A stretch of DNA of 64,000 nt from a virus (taxonomy: Duplodnaviria; Heunggongvirae; Uroviricota; Caudoviricetes). The notes beneath the pieces are model-generated. The model saw only the letters and a list, made by a program, of their open reading frames with translations, was not told the origin of the DNA and ran no database searches. The position numbers and the translations under genes are program-made. Location of the stretch: positions 62,732-126,731 of the IMG/VR virus record IMGVR_UViG_3300037510_000569. One strand, 5' to 3'. This document shows, piece after piece, positions 2,710 through 34,171 of this stretch (positions are counted from its first letter, which is position 1; each line of letters begins with the position of its first letter).

Positions 2710-3237
2710 ATGAGGGTCGCCGTCGGCTACCTCTGGCATTTCGGCTCGACGACGCTCCACAAGTTCTGGGTTGCCTTCCACCTGATGCGCTGGGTCTTCT
2801 CCGACTACCTGCGCGCGCTCGAGCACGACGACATCCCGCCGCTCCTGCTCTGGCTCGAGCTCGTCAAGCGCGCCCTGCTGCACGATCTCTCCAAGTACCG
2901 GCGTGACGAGGCCCAAGGCTTCGCCCGGACGATTCATCGGCTGGGCAGCACGCCGTATGGCACCGACGCCTACAAAGAGCTTTTGCGGGAGATCAAACCG
3001 TCGATCCAGCGCCACTACAGCCGCAACCGCCACCATCCCGAGTGGCACGCGGATGGCTATGAGGGCATGAGCCGCATCGACCGGATCGAGATGGTCGCCG
3101 ACTGGGGCGCTGCGGTGCGCCGGCACAAGGACGGCGACCTCGAGCGCTCGATCACCACCAACGCCGAGCGTTTCGGCTACGGCGACAACGAGACGATTTT
3201 CCTGCGTTCCACCGCGCGTCGAATGAGACTGCTTTAG
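2710..3237 (+). CDS. hypothetical protein with H..HD..H motifs, possible HD-type metal-dependent hydrolase
   Basis: LLHDLSKY and RHHPEWH motifs; 175 aa. Confidence 0.45.
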   Translation: MRVAVGYLWHFGSTTLHKFWVAFHLMRWVFSDYLRALEHDDIPPLLLWLELVKRALLHDLSKYRRDEAQGFARTIHRLGSTPYGTDAYKELLREIKPSIQRHYSRNRHHPEWHADGYEGMSRIDRIEMVADWGAAVRRHKDGDLERSITTNAERFGYGDNETIFLRSTARRMRLL

Positions 3238-4400: not shown

Positions 4401-4402
4401 CT

Positions 4403-5944
4403 TCAGCCGTCGTACCTCCAAGCGGCCGGGTTGATCGAGCGAGGGCGTCGGCCGCCTTCTTTGACGGAGACCATGCCGTTAGCTTGGCGGCTGTAAACGA
4501 CTCCGCGCGTTCCATCTACTCCTCGGACGATCGGGTCCCCTTTCTCCCAGTTTTCGGGGAGCCTCTTGTCGAGCTTCACCCTCTTTACCTTCTTCGTCGG
4601 CTTGCGCTTCATTACAGCCGATGGCGTGGTCGTGGCAGGACTCTCCGGGAGCGCCAGAGCGGGCAGGTGCATCGCCAGGGAAGCCGTGCGATCGGCGTAG
4701 CGGAAGACGGCTGCGGTGTTCTCCGGCACCGTCTGCGGGACATTCGCTTCCGGGGTGACGACGATCGCCGCCGCGGGGCCGACGACGAAGACGCCAGACT
4801 CTTTCATTCGGGCGACGACACGCCCGCCAGCCCGGTATTCGGCCATGTCCGCCACATCCACGTTGCTGTTGAAGCCAGTCGCCCAGACCACGAGGTCGTA
4901 GCGAGCACCGTCGACGTAGGCACCCTCGAAGGCTACGCCCGAGCTGTCAGCGCGCCTCCGGATGGGCTTCACCCTGGCGTCGGTACCGTCGATGTCCGTG
5001 GGCAGCAGTCGAGCGATGCCCTGGTAGCGGGAGCGGTTGTTTTCCTTCCAGCCCGCACGGAACGCGCAGCTTTCCGGCACCCCATACCAGTCGATCGTCT
5101 CGATGAAGTCGAGCGACGCGACGGACATCTGGCTCGATGGACCTTGGCCAGTCATTGCCTCGATCACGGTCTTGCCCGCGTCACCAGCACCGATCACGGC
5201 GACTCGTTTCAAGCCCTGAAAGGGGAAAGGCTGATCGAGGCTGGCCAGGAACTGTGGGTAGCTCATCATCCGCTCGCCGTCCATCTCGGCGGGTCCCTTG
5301 GGTTCCCCGAGACCAGTCGCGTAGATCACGCGGGCGGTCTTGATCGTCTTGCCATCGGCGAGCGTTACGCTGGTCGAGTTTGCCTCGACTACCTCTCTCC
5401 CCACGATCACTCGTGCGTTCATTGCGAGCGCCGTGCGGATGGAGAAGGAGAGCGCGGAGTTTGGCTGGTACTCGTCGCCGCTCAAGTCGGCAGGCTGAAC
5501 CGGCGCACCAGGCAAGACGTTCAGCGCTTCGCCACGACCGGGGATGCCGAGATTGCCTGGCCGGTTGCGGCTGTTCAGGTAGAAAGTGGAATCACGGCTG
5601 ACCGCGAAGATGCCGCCAGCGCGCGGTTGCGCCTCGATCACGAGCGGTTTCGGATGGCCCTCGGCCACGCGCACCGCGCAGTAGATCGCGGCATGAAGAC
5701 CAGCGCCGACAACGATCTCCGGTGCCTCCTGCGGGACGGCGGCGCTGGCCCACATCATGTCGAGCTCTCGGTCGAACATGGCGCGCGCCTGGGGGACAAG
5801 CGCTACGCCAGTGAGTTTGGCGGCGAGGGTCGAGTCGAACTCTGGCGCGCGCGCCATCATTGCCTTTACGCCGTCGTTCATGCTCTTGTCCTGAGCGATT
5901 TTGGACAGGACAGAACCAACGCGGCTGGGGGGTCGGTCGGGCAT
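4403..5944 (-). CDS. FAD/NADPH-dependent class-B flavoprotein monooxygenase (N-hydroxylating or FMO-like) with a basic C-terminal extension
   Basis: Two dinucleotide-binding motifs (VVGAGLHAAIY and VAVIGAGDAGKTV) plus the ATG motif DLVVWATGF; own RBS gaggagaaagagaATG; start-associated motif about 36 nt upstream. Confidence 0.75.
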   Translation of the reverse strand: MPDRPPSRVGSVLSKIAQDKSMNDGVKAMMARAPEFDSTLAAKLTGVALVPQARAMFDRELDMMWASAAVPQEAPEIVVGAGLHAAIYCAVRVAEGHPKPLVIEAQPRAGGIFAVSRDSTFYLNSRNRPGNLGIPGRGEALNVLPGAPVQPADLSGDEYQPNSALSFSIRTALAMNARVIVGREVVEANSTSVTLADGKTIKTARVIYATGLGEPKGPAEMDGERMMSYPQFLASLDQPFPFQGLKRVAVIGAGDAGKTVIEAMTGQGPSSQMSVASLDFIETIDWYGVPESCAFRAGWKENNRSRYQGIARLLPTDIDGTDARVKPIRRRADSSGVAFEGAYVDGARYDLVVWATGFNSNVDVADMAEYRAGGRVVARMKESGVFVVGPAAAIVVTPEANVPQTVPENTAAVFRYADRTASLAMHLPALALPESPATTTPSAVMKRKPTKKVKRVKLDKRLPENWEKGDPIVRGVDGTRGVVYSRQANGMVSVKEGGRRPRSINPAAWRYDG

Positions 5945-11426: not shown

Positions 11427-11597
11427 CCTCAGGCGATGGGCGACATCGGCACCGAAAAGGAAGTGACGACGATCCCCGAGCCAGACTGGACCGAGCCCGA
11501 GCCGACCCAGCCAGCCCCGCCCGAGCCCGAGCCCGAGCGCGCACCTGAGAAACCGCCCGAGCGCGAGCCGGTCAAGATCCCCGCATAGGAGGCAGCG

Positions 11598-12530
11598 GTG
11601 GGGGACATCATCATCCCCAAGCCGATTGCGGCCTTCCGTAGCTGGCGGGTCGATGGCCTCGGCAGGCTGATTCCCCTTCACCACAGCGGGGAGGATTCGC
11701 CTTGGAGACCGCGTCTGATCGCTCAGGCTCAGTGCGGTAGTCGATCCAGACACAAGGACCTTGTGCCACATGACGGCTGCATGTGCGGACTCTACGGATG
11801 GCTGGAACCAGGGGGAGTAAGCCACAACGCAGGCAGAACCGTAAAGGGCGTCTTCGTCGCCTTCGGCCGCGTCGTTGTTCATGGCCGCGGACTCCGCGCT
11901 GAGAAAGGGCGCATCGTCGCGCTGATCGACGACAGCGACAAGGCACGCGAAGTAGGCAGCCTCTACGAGTTGCGTCTCGTGCCCGACGATGAGGCGCTGA
12001 AGGAGGAGGCCGAGCGTTGGGGCGAGGTGCGTGAGCCGACTGAAGCGCTAGTGAACGACGCTCTGTGGGCGGGCCAGATCACCGCGGCGAAACTCGTGGG
12101 CGAAACGATCACCGCCAAAAGGATCGTCTCCGGCTACCGAACTCCCCAGCAACAAGCCAACCTCGCCAACCATCCGGGCACCAGCAACCACGGTGTCGGC
12201 AGCCACCTCGGCCGGCCGACTCGGGTCGTCGCCATTCTGGAGTTGATGCCGCCCGCGGAAGTCGTTCAGTACCAGCACCCCGGGGGAGGCGTCAGGGTCC
12301 GCGTCAAAAACCTCGATCCCTGCTGGACCATCCGCAACATCATCGAAGAAGTGGAACGCATCGAAGCGCCATTGCCAGGCAGCCAACAGGTCCCGGCCTT
12401 CCCAGGCCGGCGCAGCTTCAAGCTAGAAATCGAAGGGGACTTTCCGGGCTACATCGAGGGCGATCGAGCCCTACGCGCTCTCCTGAGCATCGGCAGGATC
12501 AGCCAGATTTCCCAAGCGCCAATCGTGTAG
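11598..12530 (+). CDS. protein with an N-terminal C..CxCG(L/I)YA..GxRAE domain (paralog family, 3 copies) and a C-terminal region with a peptidase-M15-like SGYRTPQQQ motif
   Basis: RBS aggagg before the GTG; domain shared with 14063..14506 and 28495..29673(-); SGYR(S/T)xxxQ is the first signature of the VanY/LAS family, but the HxxGxAxD motif is not clear. Confidence 0.55.
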   Translation: MGDIIIPKPIAAFRSWRVDGLGRLIPLHHSGEDSPWRPRLIAQAQCGSRSRHKDLVPHDGCMCGLYGWLEPGGVSHNAGRTVKGVFVAFGRVVVHGRGLRAEKGRIVALIDDSDKAREVGSLYELRLVPDDEALKEEAERWGEVREPTEALVNDALWAGQITAAKLVGETITAKRIVSGYRTPQQQANLANHPGTSNHGVGSHLGRPTRVVAILELMPPAEVVQYQHPGGGVRVRVKNLDPCWTIRNIIEEVERIEAPLPGSQQVPAFPGRRSFKLEIEGDFPGYIEGDRALRALLSIGRISQISQAPIV

Positions 12531-13046: not shown

Positions 13047-14066
13047 ATGGACCCGACCGAGACCTGGGCGCTCCCCGCCTCGACGATCAAGCCTTCGCCG
13101 TTGCCGATGATCTGGCGCGGACGCATCCCAGTCGGAGCGCTAACCGTCATCGCGGGGAAGCCCGGTCTCGGCAAGTCAACGCTCGCCACGACGATCGCCG
13201 CGGACATCAGCGCCGATGGCCTGACGGCGATCATCAGCGATCTCGAGGACGACCTCGCGGGCGTCGTGCGGCCACGTCTGGAGGTCGGCGGCGCGATGCT
13301 CGAGCGCGTCCACCTGATCCCGCCCGAGGCCGCGCCGGTCCTGCCCGCCGACCTCAGCCGCCTCTACGGACTCATCACCCAGACCAAAGCCTCCTGTCTG
13401 CTCCTTGATCCGATCGGCGCGCACTTCCGGCCGGAGCGGCGCGTCCATGACCGGCCCACCCTCCGTGAACTGGTCCAGCTCGCGCGCGACACGCGCTGCG
13501 CGATCATCGGCGTCCACCACACCGTCAAGTCCTCGATCGACGGCACCGCCCTGGGCGCAATCGGCGGCCCCTCCGGGGGCCTCGCCGGCACCGCGCGCGC
13601 GGTCTACGTCTACGGCTACGACCCGAACGACGAGGATCGCCGCGCGCTGGCCTGCGCCAAGATCAACGGCGTCGAGGAGCCGCCGACGATGATCTTTGAG
13701 CACGACACGGTGGAGCTCGACTACGGCCCTGACTTGGGTGCCGGCGCCCTGCGCTTCGTCGGCGAATCCGATGCTCACGCCAAGGACGCGCTCAAGCGCG
13801 GCAAGAGCCGCACCGAGCGCGACGGCGAGTGCGGTGAGTGGCTGACCAAGTTCCTCGCAGACGGCGAGGAGGGTAAGCGCCAGGTCTCCGAGGTCAAGAG
13901 AGAGGGGACCGGCATCGGCTTCGCCTGGGCGACCCTGCGCCGCGTCGCGGTCGGCCTGCAAATCGAGCGCCAGAAGGTGGGCTTCGGTAGCGACGGCTTT
14001 TGGACCTGGGGATTGCCCGCCGACCACCCGCTGCGCAACCCCGATGGGCAAGCCCAGGAGCCATGA
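13047..14066 (+). CDS. RecA-like AAA_25 family ATPase (RepA/DnaB-like; replication or recombination)
   Basis: Walker A VIAGKPGLGKSTLA, CAIIGVHHTVKSS, RAVYVYGYDP. Confidence 0.7.
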   Translation: MDPTETWALPASTIKPSPLPMIWRGRIPVGALTVIAGKPGLGKSTLATTIAADISADGLTAIISDLEDDLAGVVRPRLEVGGAMLERVHLIPPEAAPVLPADLSRLYGLITQTKASCLLLDPIGAHFRPERRVHDRPTLRELVQLARDTRCAIIGVHHTVKSSIDGTALGAIGGPSGGLAGTARAVYVYGYDPNDEDRRALACAKINGVEEPPTMIFEHDTVELDYGPDLGAGALRFVGESDAHAKDALKRGKSRTERDGECGEWLTKFLADGEEGKRQVSEVKREGTGIGFAWATLRRVAVGLQIERQKVGFGSDGFWTWGLPADHPLRNPDGQAQEP

Positions 14067-14506
14067 GCGAGGAGCCTCGCTTCGTCGCCGAGGAGGTCAT
14101 CGGCTGGCGGGCGTGGAAGCTGAAGGGCCCAACGATCCTGCGGCCGCCTCGTCTGACCTCGGTGACGACCCGATTCCTCGGCTGGCGCACCGACGACTGG
14201 ACCGTCGCGGAGTGCGCGCGCTGCGAGGAGATACCCGGCGAGAACTGTTCCTGCGGCATATATGCGGCAAGCACCAAAGAGCACCTGAGCGAGCTGGGCT
14301 ATGGGTTGATGGGCGGCACGATCATCGGCGAAGTCGGCCTGGCGGGGAAGGTGGTCGTAGGGACGCAGGGCTATCGCGCCGAGAAGGCGCGGCCGGTCCG
14401 CCTCTTCGTCAGCTACTTCGACTGGCAGCTTGTCCGGCCGCTCCGGGAGACTTTCGGTGTCCCCGTCGAGCTGATGAACACCGACGAGGACGAGGAATGG
14501 AGGTAG
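14063..14506 (+). CDS. paralog-family protein (WRAW..C..CxCGIYA..GYRAEKA domain)
   Basis: ATGA overlap; 147 aa; the domain is shared with 11598..12530 and 28495..29673(-). Confidence 0.55.
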   Translation: MSEEPRFVAEEVIGWRAWKLKGPTILRPPRLTSVTTRFLGWRTDDWTVAECARCEEIPGENCSCGIYAASTKEHLSELGYGLMGGTIIGEVGLAGKVVVGTQGYRAEKARPVRLFVSYFDWQLVRPLRETFGVPVELMNTDEDEEWR

Positions 14507-14640
14507 CAAAGGACGTGGACATCGGCAAGGAGAAGGAGACGATCATCGTCGAGCCGGTCGAGGACCCCTTCCGGCGCGAGCCAGCCCCCGCGCCTGTCGA
14601 GCCTCCCGCGCCGGTGAAGGAGCCCGCGGTCCCCGCCTAA
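14497..14640 (+). CDS. small Pro/Glu-rich protein (47 aa)
   Basis: ATG inside the end of the upstream gene; PAPAPVEPPAPVKEPAVPA tail; short, so weak. Confidence 0.3.
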   Translation: MEVAKDVDIGKEKETIIVEPVEDPFRREPAPAPVEPPAPVKEPAVPA

Positions 14641-15174: not shown

Positions 15175-17502
15175 ATGGCGAGCCTCGAAAAGAAATTCGG
15201 CTTTAACGGCACGACCTCTGAACAGCGTCGCGAATCATGGGTTCCCACAGTCGGTGGCGCAACCGGCCTGAGCATGAACGACTCGGGAACCCTCGCTGAC
15301 TCCCCCAACGATGCGGGCGCAAATGGCGGCTATTTCTTCCTTAATCGCGAAGGCAAAAGCCTCACGAACGGAGAACCCTTCTGGGAGTGGACCGGCACCT
15401 ATGAACAATTGGGTGTACCAGCGGGGGCGACTATCACGGCGATCAACGTCAGCTATGACTGGCGCTGCAATATCTTCTCAACGGGGGCGTCTAGTACGGC
15501 TGGACCAATGGAGCTACGCGATGAAGCGGCCGCCCTGCGCAAAACCTTTTCTACTTCCCAGGCCTTTGCAGCTACGAGTGAATGGGCGACAAAATCGGGA
15601 ACCAACCAAACCGGCCTCAGCGACAAAGCCTCTACCAAAATCAAGCTCCGGCTTAATGCCAATCCGAAGACTGGAAACGCAAGCAAAGCCGAAGTCAGCC
15701 TCTTGCTCGATTGGGTGGTCGTCACGATCACCTATGAAGAAGGAGCTGGTAAAAAACTCACGCTGGAATTGACGGATACCACGACGGTATCCGAGAGCCG
15801 CGCCGCCAAAGACGCGGCCAAAAGGGCGGACACGATCACGCCTACCGAGGCGCGTTCAAAGCGACCGGGCTTGAGACGCAGCGAGGCGGTAACGCCGGCG
15901 GACGCCCGCGCCAAGCGCGCCGGGCTAAAACGCACGGACGCGGCTACGCCCAGCGAGTCCCGCCAGTTGCGCCCGGGCCTGAAACGCGCCGACGCCGCGA
16001 CCGTCGCCGAAACCCTTAAACGAGCGATCGGCGAGCGGCGCAGCGACCTCGTGACCCTGGAAACTACTCTGCGCAAGGCAGTCGGGGAGAAACGCGCCGA
16101 CGCCGCGGTGCTCGCCGACAAACTGGTGAAGGCCCTTGGCTTGCGCCGCGCCGATGCGGTCAGCCTCCTCGAGGGGCTCAAACGCTCTGCGGGCAAGAAA
16201 CAGGCTGACGGCGTGGTCCTCGCCGACCTGCTGGGGCGGGCATGGGCGGCGAAATTGAAACTCACCGAGACGATCGCGCTAGACGAAGAACTGATCGTCT
16301 TCCTCACCCGTGAACTGGACTTGGAAGACGCCCAGGCTGTCTCGGACGCCTTCGTGCGCGTCTGGGCGGCGCATGTGGGACTCGGCGACATCGCCCAAGG
16401 CATCGACGCCAAGAAGCTCGACGCGGCCCTCAGGAGGGCGGACATCGCCGCGCCCACCGATGCCCTCTCCAAGGCGCTCGCGCGCGCCCGTGCGGACTCA
16501 TTGACGGTCTCCGACGCGCGCCACTTGGCGCAGGGTCTGGGCCTGCCGGAGTTCGTCGGCATCGCCGATGCGATGCACCTGGCCTTTGGCGTCGCCGTCG
16601 GCGTCGGGCATACCTTCGCTGTTCAAGACGCACTGGCGAGGGCCTGGTCGGCACGGCTCGCCGCAGCGGACTCCTTCGCCGTGGGCGACGAACTGCAGAC
16701 GATCGATCTCGGGCGCCTCTTCAGCGAGGGCGTCTCCGTCTCGGAGTCGCACGCCTGGGCTGCGGCGAAGCTCCTTGATGACTTCTTCGAAGTGTTGGAG
16801 GCTATGCACTCGGTTGTTGGCAAGCGTCTCAGCGATTCGGCGGTGATATCGGAGAGTCGGAAACGAGGGCTGGGGAAGAACCTCGCCGACGGGGTGGCCA
16901 TCCTCGAGGAGTTGGGCTTTTCGGGCGGCGAACTGCTCGCAGACGCATTTGCGCTGGTGGACGCCCGAAGGCTCACGCTGGCGAAACTCCGCACCGAGTT
17001 CTTGGCGCTCACCGAGACCCGCCATGCCGCTGTCTCAGCCAGCCGCAAGGACTCCGCCGTGGTGGTTGATTCGCTGCGGCAGGCCTCGAGCATGAAGGTC
17101 GCCGACGCGGTTCTGGTCGCCGATGCCTTGGCGAAGGCACTGGGCCTCAGCGTTGCGGAGACCATCGCTTTCGCCGATGCGCTCGAGACCTTGCGCGGCC
17201 TCGGCATATCTATCGACGAGTCAATCGGCGCGGCCGACTCGCTGCGGCGAGGTTCGACGCTGGCTTTCCACGAAGTCGCCCACGTCATCGACAAAGCCAA
17301 ACCCCTCGGCGTCGCCGCCCACCTCGCGCTTCTGCTTCTCGCCGATGTGCTTACCACTCACCTGTCCCTCTCAGATGGTGCCGAGGGAATCGCTGAGATC
17401 GCCGATAGCTCAGCCACCCTGCTCTACCTGGATGACGCCCTGCCCGACGCGGATGTATCCGACCGCCGCAGCACTACCCTTTCCCTGGACGATCACGGAT
17501 GA
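15175..17502 (+). CDS. 775-aa repeat-rich fibrous protein (about 18-21-aa ADxxxLxDxLxKAxGxxRxD repeats), putative fibre shaft
   Basis: Dozens of degenerate repeats after a 200-aa N-terminal globular region. Confidence 0.55.
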   Translation: MASLEKKFGFNGTTSEQRRESWVPTVGGATGLSMNDSGTLADSPNDAGANGGYFFLNREGKSLTNGEPFWEWTGTYEQLGVPAGATITAINVSYDWRCNIFSTGASSTAGPMELRDEAAALRKTFSTSQAFAATSEWATKSGTNQTGLSDKASTKIKLRLNANPKTGNASKAEVSLLLDWVVVTITYEEGAGKKLTLELTDTTTVSESRAAKDAAKRADTITPTEARSKRPGLRRSEAVTPADARAKRAGLKRTDAATPSESRQLRPGLKRADAATVAETLKRAIGERRSDLVTLETTLRKAVGEKRADAAVLADKLVKALGLRRADAVSLLEGLKRSAGKKQADGVVLADLLGRAWAAKLKLTETIALDEELIVFLTRELDLEDAQAVSDAFVRVWAAHVGLGDIAQGIDAKKLDAALRRADIAAPTDALSKALARARADSLTVSDARHLAQGLGLPEFVGIADAMHLAFGVAVGVGHTFAVQDALARAWSARLAAADSFAVGDELQTIDLGRLFSEGVSVSESHAWAAAKLLDDFFEVLEAMHSVVGKRLSDSAVISESRKRGLGKNLADGVAILEELGFSGGELLADAFALVDARRLTLAKLRTEFLALTETRHAAVSASRKDSAVVVDSLRQASSMKVADAVLVADALAKALGLSVAETIAFADALETLRGLGISIDESIGAADSLRRGSTLAFHEVAHVIDKAKPLGVAAHLALLLLADVLTTHLSLSDGAEGIAEIADSSATLLYLDDALPDADVSDRRSTTLSLDDHG

Positions 17503-18408: not shown

Positions 18409-21400
18409 GTGCTGCGCGAACCCGTTTTCGAGCCGATCGAGCAAGCGGCTGACGAGGACGATCCCGAGGGCCTGCTTGGCACCGCGGCCGGGCGTCTCCT
18501 CGAGGGTGCCGCCCACAGCGGTGCGATGGTCGCGCTCTACCCCGACGCCGCCACGGCGGCCGAGCTTGCCATCTCTGACGGCGAGGACGCCGACGAGCTC
18601 CACCTGACCCTCGCCTTCCTGGGCGAAGCGGAGAAGCTGAACCTCACGCGGGCGCTCCAGGTCGTCGCCGAGTGGGCCGCAGCCTGCCCGCCCAGCCTCT
18701 CGGGTGAGATCAGCGGCGTCGGCCAGTTCGCCACGGGTCCGGTCACCTACCTCTCAGTCGATCTGCCGGATCTCCCGCCTCTGCGCGAGCGTCTGGTCGA
18801 TGGGTTCGATGCAGCAGGGGTGCCGCCGAAGCGCGACCACGGCTTCACGCCCCACATCACGCTCGACTACGCGCGGCGCCGGCCCAAGATGGACAGGCCG
18901 ATCCCGATCCGCTTCGACCGCGCGACCCTGGCCTGGGCCGGTTCCCAGTTCAGCTTCCCGCTCGGCGTCCGCTCGGCGGTGCCCCTGCAGGAGGCCCGGA
19001 TGCTCCTGGAGGGCAAATGGGACGCGAGCCTCCACCCGCGCTGGCCGAAAGGCACCCCGCGCGCGGGCGAGTTCATGCGCGTGGGCCAGCGCTTCATCGG
19101 CTCCGACGGCAAGGAGTGGCAGATCGCCCACATCGCCGGGGGCAAGGTGATCGCCAACCGCGCCGAGGGCAAATACGCCGAGACGGAGACGGGGGTCTTC
19201 CATCCCGAGAAGGTCAAGGGCGGCAAGTCACCCCTCGAAGGCGGCGAGGAGACCCACGTCATCGCCGATGTGAAGAAAGAGGCCGCACCGCGCAAGGTCC
19301 AGGGAGGCAAGGGCAAGGGCGCGACGGTGCCGATCGTCGATCCCTACGTGGACGGGTCAAGCCACGACGCCTCTCTGCCGGTTCCGGCTGGCTCGAAAGT
19401 CAGCGCCGAGGAGTGGAAACGCTTCGGCAAGATCGACCAGGAGCACTACGCCGAGTTGATGCAGCGCTTCGGCAAATACAGCCCTGGCAAGGCCAAGTCG
19501 ATGATCGACGAGGCCTACAAGGACTACGAGGCCGAGATTCAGGCGATCGTGAAGAACGCCTACAGCGCCCAGTACGGCTCCTCCTCGGGCTTCACGCTGA
19601 GCCTCACCGGCGTCTTCAAGGCGATCACCGGCCAAGACAAGAAGGAGCTGGCGAAGCTCGACGCCCAGCGCCAGCGCGCCCTCGAGCTTCAGGGCCGCCA
19701 CAAAGACGTGATCGCCTGGGACCTCTACAACCGCACGCGCTCCCCTGACGTGGCGGTCTTCCACAAGTCCAACGACCCGCCGAGCTACTGGCAGGAGTTC
19801 ATCCAGGGCAACCGGCCGGTGATGTCGGGGCTGTCGCAGTCGTTCAACTTCGGCGCGAACTTCGGCTTCGGCTCGAACACGCTGGCGACCCCGCTGGCGA
19901 TCCGCCACGTCCTGATGTCCTCCTACTCCGCCCAGCCGATCCCCGGTCAGACCCACTTCGCCGGCGAGCTCGAGATCAGCGTCGCCGAGCAGCTCAAGAT
20001 CGACAACCGCTCGATCACCTTTTCGCTGCACGACATCACCGCCAACCAGAAAAAGTGGCTGATGGGAGTCACCAAGGCACCCACCGGCGGGGACACCGTA
20101 GAGCGCTTCAAGGAAGCGCTGCAGTCCGGCGAGATGCTGCCGACCCCGCCCGCCCCGCCGGACATTCAGATGCAGGGGGAGGGGCAGAAGCTCTGGATCG
20201 ATCCGCCGCCGGAGGCCGCCGATTACATCGAGCGCTTCGCCGACAAACTGCCGGCGCAGCAGGGGTCTCCGCTGGACCCCGGCAAACTCGACAAGAAAGG
20301 TCCGTGGGCCTTCAAGGATGCGGGCGGCTTGCCGAAAGCGACCGTCGCCAAGGAGTCCGAATACAAGCCCGGCGACTACATGCTGGGGCTGAAGGGCACG
20401 CTCTACATCGTCGTCGAGGACCCCGGCGACCCGACCGGCTTCGGCTTGCGCTACGTCAAGATCGAGAACGGCAAGTTCAGCGGGGAGTCCTACAACTTCG
20501 AGGGCGGCGGCGGCAATCAGTACTTCAAGCTCAGCGCCCACTACGAGCTCCCCGACCCCCACAAAGAAGCGAAAGCATCCGACCTCTTCGACCCGCACGC
20601 CTGGGTCAACGGCGAGAAAGAGAAGTTCGTCGGCAAGCTGGAGCCGGGCGACAAGTTCAAGGTCAACGGCAGCCCCTACGAGGTCAAAGCCCAGCTGAGC
20701 GGCGCCCAGACCCAGATCACCGACCTCACCAGCGGCAAGGTCGGCACGATCAACACCGACTACAAGACCCATGTCCTGGTGCCGAAGGAGGGCTACGTGC
20801 CCGAGGCACCCGAAGGGGAGAAGCTGGCGCCGGCCAAAGGGATGACGCTCGCCTACGACGGCACAAAGCACGTCGTGACGACGATCCTGAAGGACGGCAC
20901 CGTCAAGGCGAAACCGACCGGCGGCGGCAAAACGGTGGCGATCGCAGCAGACGATCCTGAGCTGGACAACCTCTATGACCCAACCGCCCACAAGATCGGG
21001 GCCAAAATCAAGGCCGGCGACCTCGCCGTCGGCCAGCTCTTCCACGGCGGCCGCGGTTCCACGCAGCGCCCCTACGTCATCACGGGCGCGGAGGGCAACA
21101 AGGTCACCTGGCGATCGCTGGACACTGGCGAGGAGGGCATCTTCACCAAGGCCAAGCAGGTCCGACTGCTCGATGACGCGGAAGCGCCAGAGCCGGAGGC
21201 AGAGCAGCCGAGCGTCGAGCCGATCTCGCACGACCAACTCAAGCCGGGGGACTCAACGACGATCTCCAACTTGAAGGCGGGCGACTTCTTCTCGGTCGAT
21301 GGCGAAGTCTTTAACGTGGTCTGGGAGCCGCCGACGCTCGAGGACAACGCCGGCGTGGCCAAGGTGATGCCATCAGGCGAGATCGGCGCGGGGAGCAGCG

Positions 21401-22713
21401 AGGGCGCTTACCCGGACAAGCTCGTCACCTACACGGGCACTGCGCCGCCGCTACCCGCCACCGATATGCCCGAGGGCGGATTCCCCGACCTAGTGGCCGA
21501 GGGCGGATTTGACCCCTACAAGTCGAAGTACGGCAGCGGCGGCAAATACACCCACGACAAGCTCGGCGAAATGGTCCCCGGCACGATCTTCCGCGACAAG
21601 GGCGGCAAGCTCTGGAAGATCAAGGAGGCCGACCACGCCGTCATCGTCACCGATGGCAATGTCCTCTACACCGCCGACGCTTCGCTGCGCGGGCGGGTCG
21701 TCCAAGCGGAGTTCGTCGACACGACCGGCCCGGTCAAGGGCCCGCACGCCGATCCTCAAGAGGTCGCCGCAGCGGAGGGCTTGGCCCCGAACAGCAAGGG
21801 CCTGACGATGGCTGATCTGCCAGCCGGTGCGACCGTCTTGGTCAACGGCGAGGTCCAAGTGGTCAAGGCGCCCGCCGAGCCCGGCGACGAGGTGAGCGCG
21901 CTGGCTGCTTCCACCGAACTCGCAGACGGAGGCGAGAACCTTCTGGGTCCGGCGATCATCCCCGATCAGATCAAGCTGCCACCGAAGGTGAAATCGTTGG
22001 GAGCCCTCAAGGAAGGCGACACCTTCGCAGGCGCGGACGGTAAGCAGCACATCGTCGTAGCCAAGTCCGTCGATGGCGACGTAGTCGTTAAGACGCCAGG
22101 AGGTCAGCTGTGGAAGCTCCCGCCCTCGACCCCGCGCGACGCGGTCGACGCCGGTGTCGATGGTGGCCTCGCTGCGCCGCCGAAACCGGCACCCCCACCA
22201 GGTGATTTGAAAGTCGCCGACCTCGAGGACGGCGCGGTATTCATGGGTGCAGGGGGCGAGCTCAATACGGTCGTCGCCAAGACGGTTGACGGCGGGATCG
22301 TCGTGATGAAGGGCGACAAGCCCGGCGGCGAGATGACGACCCTCCCCGGCACCGCGGTCATCAAGGCAAGCCAAGTCGATGTGGAAGCCGAGGGCGGCGT
22401 AGCGGGTATCCCGTCCGAGGGCGAGTGGAGCGAGGCAGTGCAGCAGGCTCTCGGCGAAGCAGGGGTCACGATGGAGGAGGTCCCGGTGGCGAGTGGGATC
22501 GAGGGCTACAAGTCCAAATGGGGCTCTGGCGGCAAGTACCAGCACTACATGCTGAGCGAGCTCGAGCCCGGCGCCGTCTTCGTCGACAAGCAGGGCAACA
22601 GCTACACCGTCGTCGGCGGCGGGCCGAAGGGGTCGATCCTGGTGCTCGGCTCAGCCAGCGGCCTGCTCAGCCTCGCGCCGGCGGGCCTGCGCGCGAAACG
22701 CCTCGAAAGCTGA
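18409..22713 (+). CDS. giant 1434-aa multidomain protein: N-terminal 2H phosphoesterase (LigT/CPDase-like), putative R-S-ExE ADP-ribosyltransferase region, then many repeats of a roughly 40-aa small beta domain
   Basis: Two HxTx motifs (HLTLAF and HITLDY) about 85 aa apart; YNRTRS...SGLSQSF...AGELEIS spaced like ART R / STS / ExE; repeats of L(K/E)xGDxF..G..Y.VV...DG.V.V and GYKSK(Y/W)GSGGKY. Confidence 0.7.
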   Translation: MLREPVFEPIEQAADEDDPEGLLGTAAGRLLEGAAHSGAMVALYPDAATAAELAISDGEDADELHLTLAFLGEAEKLNLTRALQVVAEWAAACPPSLSGEISGVGQFATGPVTYLSVDLPDLPPLRERLVDGFDAAGVPPKRDHGFTPHITLDYARRRPKMDRPIPIRFDRATLAWAGSQFSFPLGVRSAVPLQEARMLLEGKWDASLHPRWPKGTPRAGEFMRVGQRFIGSDGKEWQIAHIAGGKVIANRAEGKYAETETGVFHPEKVKGGKSPLEGGEETHVIADVKKEAAPRKVQGGKGKGATVPIVDPYVDGSSHDASLPVPAGSKVSAEEWKRFGKIDQEHYAELMQRFGKYSPGKAKSMIDEAYKDYEAEIQAIVKNAYSAQYGSSSGFTLSLTGVFKAITGQDKKELAKLDAQRQRALELQGRHKDVIAWDLYNRTRSPDVAVFHKSNDPPSYWQEFIQGNRPVMSGLSQSFNFGANFGFGSNTLATPLAIRHVLMSSYSAQPIPGQTHFAGELEISVAEQLKIDNRSITFSLHDITANQKKWLMGVTKAPTGGDTVERFKEALQSGEMLPTPPAPPDIQMQGEGQKLWIDPPPEAADYIERFADKLPAQQGSPLDPGKLDKKGPWAFKDAGGLPKATVAKESEYKPGDYMLGLKGTLYIVVEDPGDPTGFGLRYVKIENGKFSGESYNFEGGGGNQYFKLSAHYELPDPHKEAKASDLFDPHAWVNGEKEKFVGKLEPGDKFKVNGSPYEVKAQLSGAQTQITDLTSGKVGTINTDYKTHVLVPKEGYVPEAPEGEKLAPAKGMTLAYDGTKHVVTTILKDGTVKAKPTGGGKTVAIAADDPELDNLYDPTAHKIGAKIKAGDLAVGQLFHGGRGSTQRPYVITGAEGNKVTWRSLDTGEEGIFTKAKQVRLLDDAEAPEPEAEQPSVEPISHDQLKPGDSTTISNLKAGDFFSVDGEVFNVVWEPPTLEDNAGVAKVMPSGEIGAGSSEGAYPDKLVTYTGTAPPLPATDMPEGGFPDLVAEGGFDPYKSKYGSGGKYTHDKLGEMVPGTIFRDKGGKLWKIKEADHAVIVTDGNVLYTADASLRGRVVQAEFVDTTGPVKGPHADPQEVAAAEGLAPNSKGLTMADLPAGATVLVNGEVQVVKAPAEPGDEVSALAASTELADGGENLLGPAIIPDQIKLPPKVKSLGALKEGDTFAGADGKQHIVVAKSVDGDVVVKTPGGQLWKLPPSTPRDAVDAGVDGGLAAPPKPAPPPGDLKVADLEDGAVFMGAGGELNTVVAKTVDGGIVVMKGDKPGGEMTTLPGTAVIKASQVDVEAEGGVAGIPSEGEWSEAVQQALGEAGVTMEEVPVASGIEGYKSKWGSGGKYQHYMLSELEPGAVFVDKQGNSYTVVGGGPKGSILVLGSASGLLSLAPAGLRAKRLES

Positions 22714-25074: not shown

Positions 25075-25222
25075 TCCGCCGGGCCGAAGCAGGTTGGTTA
25101 TCGGCTCATAACCGGGTGGCCGCGGGTTCGAGTCCCGTCGCACCTCCGCCTTCGGGCCACGGGTGCGTAGCTCAGTTGGTAGAGCACCTAAACGCCAATC
25201 GGCAATCCCACGCTCGGCACTT
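25075..25222 (+). ncRNA. Y-RNA-like unit 5 with T-arm-like and D-arm-like elements
   Basis: GGGCCGAAGcaggttGGTTATC ... cgcgggttcgagtcccg ... gtgcgtagctcagttggtagagcac ... caatcCCACGCTCGGC. Confidence 0.55.
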
Positions 25223-25259
25223 CCTCGACGCGACACCGGACCCTTTGCTAGTGTCGCGC

Positions 25260-25330
25260 GTGGGCGGGCCGAAGCCCTTCGGTTATCTCTTACGGAAAAG
25301 ACCCGATCGGCAACCCCACGCTCGCTCGTC
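25260..25330 (+). ncRNA. Y-RNA-like unit 6 (minimal)
   Basis: GGGCCGAAGcccttcGGTTATCTC ... caaccCCACGCTCGCT; ends about 30 nt before the Ro60 start. Confidence 0.5.
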
Positions 25331-25360
25331 TCTTGTACTCCACTGACCGGGAGGACCCCA

Positions 25361-26974
25361 ATGGGCCAGTATCTGCGCCAGCACTCCACGCGCTCCACGC
25401 CGCAGTCCGAGCCGATGAGCTCAGACCAGCGCCAGAACCCGGCCGGCGGCTTCGCTTGGCCGGTCGATGACTGGACGCGCGCGCGTCGCTTCCTGATCCT
25501 CGGTGCCGAGGGTGGCACCTACTACGTCGGTCAGCGCGAGCTCGTGAAGGACAACGCTGCGGCGCTTGAGCGCTGCCTCGCCGAGGACCCGATGCGCACG
25601 ATCGAGATGATCTGCGACATCAGCGACGGCGGTCTGGCGAAGTCCAACGACCCGGCGCTGTTCGCGCTGGCGATGGCGGTTGGCTCAAACGACCTGGAGA
25701 CGCGCCGCGAGGCTTGGCGTCGTCTGCCCCAGGTCGCCCGCATCGGCACGCACCTCTTCCACTTCGTTGCCTACATGCAGCAGTTCCGCGGCTGGGGGCC
25801 GCTGGCTCGCCGCGGCGTCAGCGCTTGGTACGAGGGCAAGGAAGCCGACAAGCTCGCCTACCAGCTCGTCAAGTACCGCCAGCGCGACGGTTGGAGCCAC
25901 CGCGACGTTCTGCGCCGCGCGCACCCCAAGGCACCGAGCGAACTGCACAAGGCGCTCTACGACTTCGCCTGCGGCCGGGAGTTCGGCGGCGGCGTGATCG
26001 AGGGCGAGGGAGGCGAGCGAGCTCTCAACATGATCGAGGGCTACCTGGCGGCGCAGAAGGCCGCAAGCCCGGCCGAGTCGGCGCGGCTGATCGGCGAGCA
26101 CGACCTGCCGCGCGAGGCGGTCAAGACCGACCACCTGACCTCGCCCGAGGTCTGGGAGGCGCTCCTGCGCAACATGCCGATCACGGCGATGATCCGCAAC
26201 CTCGCCAACCTGACTCGCGTGGGGATCATCAAGCCGATGAGCGACGGCGAGAAGCTCGTGGCAGAGCGTCTCGGCGACGAGGAGCGCCTGCGCAAGGGCC
26301 GTGTACATCCGATCGCGGTTCTCTCGGCGCTGACGATCTATGAGCGCGGCCATAGCGCCCTCGGTCGGGGCGAGGACTGGACGCCGTCGCAGAAGGTTGT
26401 TGACGCTCTCGATGCCGCCTTCTATACGGCCTTCGGGTCGGTGGAGCCCGCGAACAAGCGCACGCTGATCGCCGTCGATGTCTCCGGCTCGATGGGCTGG
26501 GGTGACATCGCTGGCGTTCCGGGGCTGACGCCGCGAGTCGGCGCCGCTGCGATGTCTCTGGTGACGGCGTCGACGGAGCCCGATCACGCGATCACCGCCT
26601 TCTCGCACACGATGGTCCCGGTCTCGGTCTCGCCGCGTCAGCGGATGGACGATGTGCTCCGCACCTTCGATGCTCTGCCGATGGGCGGCACCGACTGCGC
26701 GCTGCCGATGATCTACGCGGAAGAAATGGACCTCGAGATCGACACCTTCATCGCCTACACCGACAGCGAAACGTGGGCTGGGGAAGTCCACCCGGCTCAG
26801 GCCCTGCGCACCTACCGCGAGAAGACTGGCATCAACGCCCGCCTGATCGTCGTCGGCATGGTGTCGAGCGAGTTTTCGATCGCCGACCCCAACGACGGGG
26901 GGATGCTCGATGTCGTCGGCTTCGACAGCGCCGCGCCGGCGACGATGAGCGCCTTCTCCCGCGGCGAGGTCTAG
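25361..26974 (+). CDS. rsr: Ro60 (Rsr) orthologue: TROVE domain plus vWA domain with MIDAS motif
   Basis: RFLILGAEGGTYY, DGWSHRDVLRRAH, MPITAMIRNLANLT, RVHPIAVLSALTIYERGHS, LIAVDVSGSM (DxSxS), PMGGTDCALPMIYA, GMLDVVGFD; start set to the ATG with RBS gggagga because the upstream ORF extension overlaps the Y-RNA array. Confidence 0.85.
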   Translation: MGQYLRQHSTRSTPQSEPMSSDQRQNPAGGFAWPVDDWTRARRFLILGAEGGTYYVGQRELVKDNAAALERCLAEDPMRTIEMICDISDGGLAKSNDPALFALAMAVGSNDLETRREAWRRLPQVARIGTHLFHFVAYMQQFRGWGPLARRGVSAWYEGKEADKLAYQLVKYRQRDGWSHRDVLRRAHPKAPSELHKALYDFACGREFGGGVIEGEGGERALNMIEGYLAAQKAASPAESARLIGEHDLPREAVKTDHLTSPEVWEALLRNMPITAMIRNLANLTRVGIIKPMSDGEKLVAERLGDEERLRKGRVHPIAVLSALTIYERGHSALGRGEDWTPSQKVVDALDAAFYTAFGSVEPANKRTLIAVDVSGSMGWGDIAGVPGLTPRVGAAAMSLVTASTEPDHAITAFSHTMVPVSVSPRQRMDDVLRTFDALPMGGTDCALPMIYAEEMDLEIDTFIAYTDSETWAGEVHPAQALRTYREKTGINARLIVVGMVSSEFSIADPNDGGMLDVVGFDSAAPATMSAFSRGEV

Positions 26975-28205: not shown

Positions 28206-28498
28206 CGGTGATGATCGGACTCCCGACGCCTGCGGCCCAGATTCGGGAGGAGCTCGCTCGATTGCGGCGCAAGGGCCTGAGTTTCGAGATCGCCTGGCGG
28301 CGAGCACTTGAGCGCGTGAAGTGGCCCGAAGAGAAAGGGCCGCGCGACGAATGGAAGGCGATCCTCGCCGACGGCAGGCCGATGTGGGAGGACGCCTACC
28401 TCCGCAACGGCAACAAGCCGAAGGGCATGGAGGCGATCACCGGCTTCTTCCTCTCAGACGCCTCGGGCGAGCGCCAACCGCTCGAGGTCCTCGCCTAG
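28202..28498 (+). CDS. hypothetical protein
   Basis: ATGA overlap; 98 aa. Confidence 0.45.
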   Translation: MTVMIGLPTPAAQIREELARLRRKGLSFEIAWRRALERVKWPEEKGPRDEWKAILADGRPMWEDAYLRNGNKPKGMEAITGFFLSDASGERQPLEVLA

Positions 28499-29673
28499 CG
28501 CTTCACCCGCCGGAACCAGAAGGGCAGCAGGTACCCGATGCCGGTCGCGCAGGCGATGTAGAAGCCGGAGAAGAACACGCTGTGATCTGAGACGCTCATG
28601 GCGAAGTTCCACACGTAGCTGACGAAGAAGAGCAGGCAGAAGAACAGCATCACCGCGGAGACCGCCCTGTCGTACTTCAGGATGAAGCGGTCACTGCGGT
28701 CGAGCTTGATGTAGACCACAGCAGGGTGTTTCTTCGAGTGTCCGGGAGGGCAGACCTCGCCGACGTACATCACCATTCCCTCGCGCTCCTCCGGCGTCTT
28801 GTCGCCAGAGAGGACCTCGATCTCGTAGTTGCCGCGGGCGCGCGGCCTGCCATTGATACGAATGAGACCGCCTTCGCTCAGCGTCATCGGCGGCGCCCAG
28901 AAGATGTCGTTGGGGGTGGTGTCGAGCTCTGGCCGCATCTCCTCAGGAACGACATCGCCGTCTGTCTGGGACTCAACCCACGCGCGCATTGCTTTGGGCT
29001 TCGGCTCGATCACCTCGACTCCGTAGCGCCCGACCGCGCGTTTGAGCGCCGCCGCCAGGTCGTAGCTCGCCCCCTTCTCCTCGATCATCGCTTGCACCGG
29101 GGTACAGAGTGCGACGATTTCGGCGTACTCGGCTCGGATGCCCGCGTGGTGGACCTCCATGTCACCCCAGGCTCGGACGATGCCCGCGACCGGGATTGCT
29201 TCGCTCTTGCCGAAGCGGACCAGCTCGACATCACGCGGGTCGTGGTAGGCGTAGAGGCCGCAGCCGCAGTTGGCGAGGGGAGCGCGGTGCCCGTCGGCGA
29301 AGTCGGCCACGCAGACAGCGACATTGCGACCAGCCTCCCAAGTGGTGTTCCCCTGTCCCTGCGAGGTCAGGTATCCAGCTGCGTCAAGTTGCCAAGCGCG
29401 GAAACCGTAAACCGCCCCGACGAGATCCGGCGGAACCTCCGGCCGCGCCGGCGGCTCGAACTTCAGAGAGGCCGCTTCCCACTCTTCGATCGAAGTCTGC
29501 TCCCAATTGGTGCGCAAGTCGGTGACGCTGAGGACCAGCGTTTCGCCCATCCCACCAACCCGAGCAGGCAAGGTCTGTACGACCACGACCCCAGGAGCGA
29601 CAGGGACATGCTGAATTACGCGGACGAGCTTTAGCGGGTCCGCTGCGTTGCGCCAGTAGGTGCTCTCCAGCAC
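28495..29673 (-). CDS. paralog-family protein (FRAW..C..CGCGLYA..GIRAEYA domain) with C-terminal TM segments
   Basis: Minus-strand ORF with GTG start; third copy of the domain seen at 11598 and 14063; hydrophobic C-terminus LFFCLLFFVSYVW and FYIACATGIGYLLPFWF. Confidence 0.55.
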   Translation of the reverse strand: MLESTYWRNAADPLKLVRVIQHVPVAPGVVVVQTLPARVGGMGETLVLSVTDLRTNWEQTSIEEWEAASLKFEPPARPEVPPDLVGAVYGFRAWQLDAAGYLTSQGQGNTTWEAGRNVAVCVADFADGHRAPLANCGCGLYAYHDPRDVELVRFGKSEAIPVAGIVRAWGDMEVHHAGIRAEYAEIVALCTPVQAMIEEKGASYDLAAALKRAVGRYGVEVIEPKPKAMRAWVESQTDGDVVPEEMRPELDTTPNDIFWAPPMTLSEGGLIRINGRPRARGNYEIEVLSGDKTPEEREGMVMYVGEVCPPGHSKKHPAVVYIKLDRSDRFILKYDRAVSAVMLFFCLLFFVSYVWNFAMSVSDHSVFFSGFYIACATGIGYLLPFWFRRVKR

Positions 29674-29676
29674 CGT

Positions 29677-29820
29677 TTAAGCGGGGACCTTCTCGGGTGC
29701 CTTCTCTGGTGCCTTTTCAGGCGCGCGCTCAGGCTTTGGCTCCGTGCGCTCTGGCGGTGGCGCGGGGGCACGAGCGGGGTCGTCTACGCGGATGCGCTGG
29801 GGCTTGCCTGGAAGGGTCAT
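29677..29820 (-). CDS. small Pro/Glu-rich protein (47 aa)
   Basis: RBS aaggaga before the ATG (reverse complement), partial start-associated motif; PERTEPKPERAPEKAPEKAPEKVPA; hand-translated. Confidence 0.35.
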   Translation of the reverse strand: MTLPGKPQRIRVDDPARAPAPPPERTEPKPERAPEKAPEKAPEKVPA

Positions 29821-29830
29821 CGAGATGTCT

Positions 29831-29923
29831 CCTTGGTCGGTTCGTTGGAGACTACATCCTGGCGCGCAACGCAGACAACAAAGCTGTGCAGCAGGTAGTC
29901 TGCCGCTACCCCGACCAAGGAGA
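29831..29923. promoter_or_regulatory. divergent regulatory region with two partial start-associated motifs, one per strand
   Basis: ccttggtcggttcgttgg on the minus side and ccccgaccaaggag on the plus side. Confidence 0.4.
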
Positions 29924-29926
29924 TTC

Positions 29927-30739
29927 GTGGCAGACCCGTTTCGCGTCTATGGCCCCGAGGAGTGCGGCCAGGACGGCTATCCCTTCATCTGGCATCGCAA
30001 CGACGGCTCGCTCGACGCTCTGATCGCAGAGCTAGAAATCGCTGAGACCTCTGGCGTCAAGCACATCGTCCGCGCCCAGGCTGCGCACCGCTGTCTGCGC
30101 TGCAACCACCCCTTCGTGGTCGGGGAGTCGGGAGTGATGGAGGGTCCTCAGGCCGAAGCTAAGTCCTGGGCGGCCGAGATGGGCGTCGATGTCGAGGTCC
30201 TCGATGAGGTCTTCGCCGACATCGGCGTGCCCGGCCTGACGCGCGAGCAGGAGATGAAAGCCCTTGAGCGCGCGCGGCGGATCAACTGGTCACGCTGCGA
30301 CAAGCTCTGTACCCACGGTGGCCCGATCCGGGCGGCGTGGGAGAACAAGGAGACCGGCGAGACCGAAAAAGGCGATACCTGGTCGCCGACCAGCGTCGCC
30401 ACCGCCGGCGAGCTTCATCAGGAGTGGCTCGGCAAGGGCAGGATCGAAGCCGCCTGGCGCATCCTCACCGTCCACCACCTCGACGAGGTGAAGGCGAACC
30501 TGCGCTGGTGGAACCTAGTCGCGCTCTGCCAGCGCTGCCACCTCCTGATCCAGCGCAAGGTGACGATGGACCACCCCTGGCCATGGGAGCACTCGGACTG
30601 GTTCCGACCCTACGCTGCGGCTTGGTACGCGCTGAAGTATCGCGGCGAAGAGCTGAACCGGCTCGAAACGCTCGGCCGCCTTGAGGAGCTGCTGGCGCTC
30701 GGCCAGCGCGAAGAGTCCGTAGAGAGGATGCCGCTTTGA
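29927..30739 (+). CDS. HNH endonuclease with an N-terminal CxxC domain
   Basis: GTG after ccaaggag; HHLDEVKANLRWWNLVALCQRCHLL HNH core; HRCLRCNH. Confidence 0.65.
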   Translation: MADPFRVYGPEECGQDGYPFIWHRNDGSLDALIAELEIAETSGVKHIVRAQAAHRCLRCNHPFVVGESGVMEGPQAEAKSWAAEMGVDVEVLDEVFADIGVPGLTREQEMKALERARRINWSRCDKLCTHGGPIRAAWENKETGETEKGDTWSPTSVATAGELHQEWLGKGRIEAAWRILTVHHLDEVKANLRWWNLVALCQRCHLLIQRKVTMDHPWPWEHSDWFRPYAAAWYALKYRGEELNRLETLGRLEELLALGQREESVERMPL

Positions 30740-33685: not shown

Positions 33686-34099
33686 TTAGGCAGAGCGCTT
33701 TAGCTCGCGCAGGCGGGCTGTCGCCTGCTCTCGGTAGGCAAGCTCGGAATCCGTGAGCTTACGACCACCAGAGCCATAAGTGAGGATCAGGTCTGCCAGA
33801 ACTCCAGCCTCCGCCTTCTTAACGACCAGATAGGGCTGTATCGCGTCAAGTACCTCACGAACACCCTTAGCCCCCTGCACTGACCAAGCGTAAACAGGAC
33901 GGTGCTCGCCCTTGCCTTTGCAGCGCTGGTAGACAGACCCGCCGAATATGCCTTGAAGCTTCTTCAGTGCAGCGAGGTTCGTATTGCCGACCGTGATTCG
34001 TGGCATATGCCGCTGGCGAGAAGCCAGATTCCGATGAACATCGAGACATCCCTCACCGTCGATGAAGCCAGCGGCCCATGCGCGGTCAGTCTCTCGCAT
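33686..34099 (-). CDS. LAGLIDADG homing endonuclease (single-motif type)
   Basis: AWAAGFIDGEGC motif; ATG at 34099 chosen, or alternatively TTG at 34162; sits between the divergent ku and ligase genes. Confidence 0.65.
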   Translation of the reverse strand: MRETDRAWAAGFIDGEGCLDVHRNLASRQRHMPRITVGNTNLAALKKLQGIFGGSVYQRCKGKGEHRPVYAWSVQGAKGVREVLDAIQPYLVVKKAEAGVLADLILTYGSGGRKLTDSELAYREQATARLRELKRSA

Positions 34100-34137
34100 G
34101 GTCAGGCAGCCTACTGGCTGCGATCCAGCCAAATAAG

Positions 34138-34167
34138 TGCTAACTTTCTTGGCACCGACCAAGGGGA
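34138..34167 (+). promoter_or_regulatory. full start-associated motif copy before the ligase gene
   Basis: gctaactttcttggcaccgaccaagggga, 4 nt before the ATG. Confidence 0.55.
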
Positions 34168-34171
34168 AGCA

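Follow-up and report, generated by a model that had tools for sequence, protein, structure and literature searches.

A putatively zinc-bearing protein family with a predicted ADP-ribosyltransferase fold, paired with small peptides and a RecA-like ATPase, in a tailed-phage genome

The core of ADP-ribosyltransferases (ARTs) is a six-stranded split sheet, made of two three-stranded units with a conserved helix between strands 2 and 3, as set out in section 3.3.1 of PMC9503650 and in PMC11543638. Hybrid ART triads are known, such as R-Y-N in ParT, H-Y-D in Arr, H-H-h in Tpt1 and H-H-D in AcrIF11 (PMC8120803, Table 1). DarT, the DNA ADP-ribosyltransferase of DarTG (PDB 8baq, 7yk3, 7omv), has a long substrate-binding ARTT loop, neither a zinc site nor a linked ATPase, and a Macro (DarG) or NADAR hydrolase as partner. 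The RNA 2'-phosphotransferase Tpt1/KptA (PDB 7yw4, 9ld3) has two lobes, the N-terminal one a winged helix, and an R-H-R-R catalytic tetrad (PMC8120803), and the rifampin ADP-ribosyltransferases Arr/ARR-2 (PDB 2hw2, 9iaf) are stand-alone resistance enzymes with an H-Y-D triad and no zinc site. Here we describe three paralogous genes, copies 1 to 3, each next to the gene of a small peptide, in a 64,000-nucleotide stretch of a tailed phage (IMG/VR virus record IMGVR_UViG_3300037510_000569, positions 62,732 to 126,731; hereafter the window). According to structure models, the core of about 130 residues that they share very probably has the ART fold.

The locus differs from each of these systems. 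The domain family has no sequence or Pfam (DUF4433) relation to DarT; in the window, the neighbours of the domain are a P-loop ATPase of the AAA_25 family and a Pro/Glu-rich peptide of about 45 residues, in place of the hydrolase that accompanies DarT. Its members form a single lobe of about 130 residues with neither an N-terminal winged-helix lobe nor a conserved R-H-R-R tetrad, no conserved His adjacent to Arg16 and no match to the Tpt1/KptA family PTS_2-RNA in Pfam, and the linkage of their genes is to the ATPase, Ku and the peptide instead of RNA ligases. A candidate variant triad that begins with Arg and Tyr (R-Y-N in ParT; PMC8120803) and a bicistronic cognate partner are features in which the family resembles ParT/RES and other ART toxins. 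Neither the family nor the peptide nor their gene cassette appears in the four profile libraries or the literature that we searched, a link between ARTs and AAA_25 ATPases included, and the sections and term searches of a survey of viral NAD+/ADP-ribose genes (PMC9503650, its supplements aside) yield no ART of this kind. We consider that this would be a new zinc-bearing ART-fold family, with a peptide partner and an ATPase cassette that are without precedent; the functional side of this proposal draws on predicted structure and gene context.

The window holds open reading frames for all three copies at the positions given in a preliminary description of this DNA (Table 1), and each shows the GC3 > GC1 > GC2 pattern of a coding sequence (window G+C content 64.4%). 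That description took them for paralogues with a common domain, and this is borne out by pairwise BLASTP, with E = 2e-8 for copies 1 and 2, 3e-9 for copies 1 and 3 and 1e-6 for copies 2 and 3, over about 105-145 aligned residues of 24-29% identity. When the six-frame translation of the window is searched with a family hidden Markov model (HMM), whose 24-sequence seed contains the three window copies themselves, exactly three matches are obtained: 11613-12032 (+; copy 1, E = 7e-36), 14060-14497 (+; copy 2, E = 4e-58) and 29448-29002 (-; copy 3, E = 2e-39). The signature first proposed for the domain is largely right, as FRSW/WRAW/FRAW, CxCG(L/I)Y and G.RAE hold throughout, but its (F/W)G..V.H element is present in copies 1 and 3 only.

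Table 1. Positions of the genes and domains of the window; ART-like and partner assignments are predictions.
Feature	Coordinates	Strand	Length	Remarks
Copy 1	11598..12530	+	310 aa	ART-like, putatively zinc-bearing domain at about 11613-12032, then an orphan C-terminal half at 12033-12530
Copy 2	14063..14506	+	147 aa	Stand-alone ART-like domain
Copy 3	28495..29673	-	392 aa	ART-like domain at 29002-29448
Copy 1 partner peptide	11436..11588	+	50 aa	MGDIGTEKEVTTIPEP...VKIPA; ends 10 nt before copy 1
Copy 2 partner peptide	14497..14640	+	47 aa	MEVAKDVDIGKEKETIIVEPVEDPF...PAVPA; 10-nt overlap with the end of copy 2
Copy 3 partner peptide	29677..29820	-	47 aa	MTLPGKPQRIRVDDP...PEKAPEKAPEKVPA; AGGAGA Shine-Dalgarno sequence upstream; stop 2 nt before the start of copy 3
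RecA/RadA-like AAA_25 P-loop ATPase	13047..14066	+	339 aa	Pfam AAA_25, E = 2.7e-13
2H/LigT phosphoesterase domain	18409-22713			N-terminus of a 1434-aa protein
Ro60/TROVE+vWA protein	25163-26974			
RlaP nucleotidyltransferase	30736-31530			
DUF5662 member	2710-3237			E = 1.9e-26
DUF4262 member	35453-35947			E = 1e-30; just after the ligase gene

Copy 1 begins with a GTG codon that has an AGGAGG Shine-Dalgarno sequence 5 nt upstream, and its homology to the other copies sets in at residue 10 and covers residues 10-61. In public data, the gene as called by JGI (P0004, 249 aa) starts at the internal Met62 and omits window positions 11598-11780; given the Shine-Dalgarno-backed start and the homology over residues 10-61, this call truncates the conserved domain by half. 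The key residues of this copy are R14, C46, C61 and C63 (to which a His may be added as fourth ligand), Y66 and R100-A-E102, while those of copy 2 are R16, C51/C54/C62/C64, G65-I-Y67-A and R105-A-E107 (nt 14375-14383), and those of copy 3 are R92, C121/H129/C136/C138, Y141 and R180-A-E182.

Copy 3 is built from a 70-residue N-terminal extension, the domain, a middle region without assigned role and a C-terminal hydrophobic region (about 28519-28668). It had been credited with C-terminal transmembrane helices: a strong hydrophobic segment is found at about residues 336-358, but a second, weaker one (about 362-385) is seen by eye only and stays below the hydropathy threshold. The gene is one of the few on the minus strand of the window and has, as already recognised, a small open reading frame 2 nt upstream, that of its peptide. 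Together the two (28495-29820, -) make up a minus-strand islet in a nearly all-plus genome, adjoining an HNH endonuclease gene (29744-30739, +), and may be a mobile insertion. Copy 3 was not returned from the protein collection and may be uncalled there. An 89-nt tRNA-Ala(ggc) that ARAGORN places over the 3' end of the gene (28417-28505, -) finds no support in Rfam at the gathering threshold and is probably a false positive.

The predicted models of the domain (numbered as in copy 2 from here on) run through strand 12-21, which carries the Arg, a short strand at 30-33, an insert, strand 66-69 with the GIYA motif, helix 72-78, a hairpin of strands 86-100/103-117 with the RAE motif, helix 118-131 and strand 135-138. 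These six strands and the helix follow the split-sheet arrangement described for ARTs in the parts of the two sources cited above, and the proteins of reference for the fold are KptA, PARP15, pertussis toxin S1, Arr, RES toxins, Tne2 and AcrIF11. A Foldseek search against the PDB, the fold check that the preliminary description had suggested, gave no match at E <= 0.001.

Across 146-147 diverse family members, Arg16 is conserved in 99% (144/146) and Tyr67 in 93% (136/147), and Gly65 and Arg/Lys105 in 100%. Further near-invariant positions are W18, L31, S33, W41, A49, P58, Y80, G89, G95, G103, A106 and Y131. From the sequences, a candidate active site R-Y-E can be put together from Arg16 on strand 1, Tyr67 in the GIYA strand before the conserved helix, and Glu107 of the R105-A-E107 motif that opens strand 5; it would be a variant of the H-Y-E and R-S-E triads, which in ARTs are spread over strands 1, 2 and 5 and define the classes. 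We take the G-I-Y-A strand to resemble the G-[FI]-Y-x-A strand of PARPs, diphtheria toxin and exotoxin A.

The insert between strands 1 and 2 carries the cysteines that caught the eye at the outset. C51 and C64 are each kept in 97% of members and C62 in 90% (with His in a further 6%), and the fourth putative ligand varies, being H55 in 41%, C54 in 8%, or a Cys within inserts; a few members lack the cluster (P0020-22, L013). Together, C51, C62 and C64 with H55 or C54 look like a plausible structural zinc site of the Cys3-His/Cys knuckle type. In one metagenomic member (P0141, 544 aa), an insert of about 325 residues splits the domain exactly before C64, the second Cys of CxCG. It begins with CVPLDTEIL, contains TADH and ends in GN|C, and is probably an intein by these features; three mini-inteins align with it weakly but in register (E 0.33-0.56), and it has no match in Pfam or NCBIfam. 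The exact placement of this intein-like insert argues that the CxCG motif is functionally critical.

The family turned out to be large and unnamed. A word-indexed search of 5.8 billion proteins gave 23 relatives, none with a name, and an exhaustive HMMER search with the 24-sequence profile returned 15,655 representatives (clusters at 50% identity) at E <= 1e-3, of which 7,718 reach E <= 1e-10; every public name among them is 'hypothetical protein'. The suspicion that the domain belongs to no known family has held, since Pfam-A, NCBIfam, PHROGs and PADLOC give no match for the three proteins, their sub-regions or the small peptides, and a Pfam scan of 147 members at E <= 10 recovers only N-terminal zinc ribbons in extended members. 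The profile search also answered what the preliminary description had wished to see, the spread of the domain and its fusion partners. A typical member is a stand-alone protein of 140-200 residues. Some members carry N-terminal zinc ribbons, others have C-terminal membrane helices like those of copy 3 (P0143, P0167) or are tandem duplications with hydrophobic segments resembling membrane helices (P0024, P0053, P0157), and two (P0098, P0136) are fused to an AAA_25 ATPase domain, with both E107 and Q107 forms among these fusions.

Nearly all retrieved loci have a G+C content of 64-71%, and soil metagenomes are among the sources of the contigs. Among isolated phages, tblastn finds the domain in just seven Streptomyces phages of about 112-116 kb (including BRock, LuckySocke, Alone3, GiJojo and pSt2308); a comparison at the DNA level with the GenBank phage collection detects no related phage, only tRNA matches, and a scan of genomes gave one locus, in a Gaiellaceae metagenome-assembled genome.

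The second element of the system is the peptide. The three window peptides are 47-50 residues long, rich in Pro and Glu, and end in (I/V)PA; that of copy 1 matches the peptide-family HMM with E = 1.7e-8 and has a GC3 of 0.84, and a protein identical to that of copy 2 is called in public data (P0215). A 14-peptide profile collects at least 540 proteins of 37-65 residues at E <= 0.01, none of them named and each one a stand-alone protein, and in no homologue was the peptide found fused to the domain. Their consensus is M-[DEN]-I-G-x-E-x-x-x-I-I-V-E-P-[ILV]-E-D-P-F-[KR]-R, followed by a variable Pro-rich linker and a terminal E-P-E-K-V-P-A-COOH. Each type of peptide (the bacterial one and those beside copies 1, 2 and 3) has an N-terminal motif of its own, and all share the VP(A/D) end. 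The IIVEPxEDPF stretch resembles the IFIVEP...IEDDPN of Arr.

Gene order ties the peptide closely to the domain. In 11/11 other non-redundant loci of subfamily A (L001, L003, L006-L012, L014, L016), the peptide gene comes directly after the copy-2-like gene, and it is found upstream of membrane-type or copy-1/3-type members on two phage contigs (L005, L021) and at three bacterial loci (L017, L018, L019). We consider it likely that the peptide is a physical partner of the domain. From the distribution of its motifs we infer that the strand-like N-terminal part (IIVEPxEDPF) may bind the cognate domain, and that the (K)VPA-COOH end may either meet a second factor common to all or mark the peptide for degradation; the chain is probably disordered. 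Two other roles were considered and dropped: that of a DNA mimic, as the charges of peptide and domain are inconsistent, and that of a missing ART strand, as the domain models are already six-stranded.

In bacteria, the peptide-domain core module often has a putative membrane anchor and occurs in tandem arrays. The three chromosomal arrays (L017-L019) hold two or three tandem pairs of peptide and then domain, with or without membrane helices, beside a YjbR-family gene; a DUF2269 gene and a secreted-looking protein of about 585 residues are each present in two of the three. Their recurrence points to a stable cellular role besides the one in phages.

Copy 2 belongs to a mobile three-gene cassette of ATPase, domain and peptide, counted at 10 other non-redundant loci. 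The stop of the ATPase gene and the start of copy 2 share 4 nt, and the ATPase itself has weak PDB matches to RecA/RadA. A homologue of 31-58% identity lies directly upstream of the copy-2-like gene at 9 other non-redundant loci (L001, L003, L006-L012), and none of the other window neighbours tested is conserved at these ATPase-bearing loci, which identifies the three genes as the unit that moves. The fusions of ATPase and domain in P0098 and P0136 confirm a functional link between the two. At two loci (L001:10568-12412 and L007:5259-7001), the gene after the peptide encodes a P-loop protein of about 614 residues, 34% identical between them and with repeated C-terminal segments by inspection.

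The surroundings of the cassette are rich in genes of DNA metabolism, namely RecT, RusA, ParB and DnaB. Ku is encoded 0.15-2.5 kb downstream of it at five loci (L003, L006, L008, L010, L011), with an ATP-dependent ligase next in four of the five; in the window, copy 3 is separated by 3 kb from genes for Ku (32774-33622, -) and an ATP-dependent ligase (33902-35095). A 9.7-kb phage contig (L005; positions 1333-1899 and 4402-4947) holds two adjacent paralogues together with a Macro domain gene 1.4 kb away, the only one among the loci, and an isochorismatase/nicotinamidase-like gene, which give circumstantial support to a link with NAD+/ADP-ribose.

Taken together, we propose that the domain is a zinc-bearing, NAD+-using transferase of the ART fold that is controlled by its cognate peptide, and we give this reading as a whole a probability of about 0.5. 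Mechanistically, the zinc-stabilised domain would use NAD+, and copy 2 would ADP-ribosylate a substrate that the RecA-like ATPase presents to it, either a nucleic acid (single-stranded DNA or the ends of DNA or RNA) or a protein bound to DNA. Each paralogue would work with its own adjacent peptide, which would gate or target the activity. The variants in copies 1 and 3 would do without the ATPase, and copy 3 would be anchored in the membrane and act there. Catalytic activity as a transferase is close to an even bet, perhaps a shade under. Nucleic acids and DNA-bound proteins were chosen as candidate substrates because the genes around the cassette serve DNA metabolism, with Ku and ligase often coming next, and that the substrate is in fact DNA or RNA is rated below catalysis itself.

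Several observations weigh against this proposal. None of the profile comparisons places the domain in a described ART family: no ART family is among the 25 most-matched Pfam families for the 147 scanned members, an hhalign comparison of the family with ARR-2 detected no relationship, and a sequence-profile search of the PDB gave only noise (including a match resembling the L32 zinc ribbon, E 0.42), as the searches of Pfam, NCBIfam, PHROGs and PADLOC had given nothing. Arg16, Tyr67 and Glu107 were mapped onto the ART triad by their order in the sequence. Position 107 is Glu in 74/146 members, Gln in 45, Ala in 14 and Ser in 7, so not all members of the family can rely on classical Glu-dependent catalysis. 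Known ARTs recognise their substrate through the loop that connects strands 4 and 5; in the domain, this loop is only a tight turn, and the charge of the domain is not consistently basic. Some members have no adjacent peptide (BRock gp216, L013, L022-L024), and no Macro, NADAR or ARH gene is present among the window open reading frames scanned.

The first alternative is a non-catalytic ART-fold module, stabilised by zinc, that would bind NAD+/ADP-ribose, nucleic acid or protein or act as an adaptor for them, for example as loader, regulator or specificity subunit of the AAA_25 ATPase, with the peptide as a tether to another factor. However, the near-invariance of R16, Y67, Y80 and R/K105 in very diverse members goes beyond the needs of a scaffold, R, Y and E are kept in all three window copies (Glu at position 107 included), and the intein-like insert before C64 in P0141 suggests an important site. 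In addition, active Glu-less ARTs exist with the ParT, Tpt1 and Arr triads given above (PMC8120803, Table 1). We regard the adaptor as rather unlikely, if worth keeping in mind.

A second alternative retains the enzymology proposed for the transferase and differs in purpose: the domain would be an ART-like, growth-arresting toxin, the acidic peptide its labile inhibitor, and VPA-COOH a degradation signal, as in toxin-antitoxin or toxin-immunity pairs. Domain and peptide are indeed paired one to one, with a partner-specific N-terminal peptide motif and a common C-terminal end, and for copies 1 and 3, as at the bacterial loci, the peptide gene lies upstream of the domain gene and is translationally coupled to it; ART toxins with adjacent protein inhibitors are also well described, among them DarTG, ParST, MbcTA and Tre1-Tri1 (PMC8120803). 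On the other hand, the order is reversed in the ATPase cassette, where the peptide of copy 2 is downstream, and the peptide has neither a DNA-binding nor a hydrolase domain. Addiction modules do not usually come as three pairs in a single lytic-type myovirus, or as stable tandem arrays on chromosomes with recurring neighbours (YjbR, DUF2269); a membrane-anchored toxin would be atypical, and PADLOC returned no match. We hold this explanation to be unlikely.

It is quite improbable, in our judgement, that the domain is unrelated to ARTs, its fold being convergent and its role that of a zinc-finger-type, nucleic-acid-binding replication or repair accessory of the AAA_25 ATPase. The idea that copy 1 joins the Cys domain to an M15-type (VanY-like) zinc peptidase, for the cell wall or as a sensor, came from its string SGYRTPQQQ, which is like the SGYRS motif of VanY, but it is effectively refuted at the sequence level and hardly credible, as residues 145-310 match no Pfam family even at E <= 10, the C-terminal half with this string (about residues 140-310) matches only itself among the 5.8 billion proteins, and the M15 zinc-ligand pattern HxxxxxxD...H, with its Asp-containing ligand motif, was not found after the string on inspection.

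Beyond the proposed transferase, a bolder version can be formulated, which we rate as doubtful. The three components would catalyse a new NAD+-dependent reaction whose site is single-stranded DNA or the ends of DNA (for instance the capping or marking of phage genome ends together with Ku and ligase), or the peptide would itself be modified or conjugated as a tag; the peptide-domain core would be widespread in G+C-rich bacteria. For the peptide only, an analogy can be drawn to Pup, which is actinobacterial: both have about 45-65 residues, are presumably disordered and have a conserved C-terminal end, and the contigs that bear the peptide are G+C-rich and probably actinobacterial. However, the two have no sequence similarity, the peptide ends in VPA and Pup in GGQ/GGE, and no PafA/Dop-type ligase is found near the peptide. 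A Pup-like conjugation would be pure speculation.

The rest of the window is that of a tailed phage with a myovirus-type genome (tail sheath at 46812-48293), for which ARAGORN predicts 16 tRNAs, 13 of them confirmed by Rfam. It encodes a suite for RNA and DNA repair, formed by the 2H/LigT, Ro60/TROVE-vWA and RlaP proteins of Table 1 with Ku and the ATP-dependent ligase. The idea that a Y RNA or an element resembling tRNA lies close to Ro60 and copy 3 was rejected, as Rfam yields only the 13 ordinary tRNAs and no Y RNA. A 775-residue protein (15175-17502) includes a long series of degenerate repeats (such as RADAATPSESRQLRPGLKRADAATVAETLKRA), in which A, R, D, L and K abound, and belongs to no Pfam family.

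ADP-ribosyltransferases are central to the conflict between phages and their hosts and to DNA and RNA repair, both as weapons and as regulators. More than 15,000 sequence clusters missed by all annotation resources would be a sizeable blind spot in this field. If the proposal is true, hundreds of tiny and often uncalled genes would gain a function. The pairing with a peptide and the cassette with a RecA-like ATPase make up a concrete, clonable system, which could reveal a new substrate or a new control of NAD+ modification.

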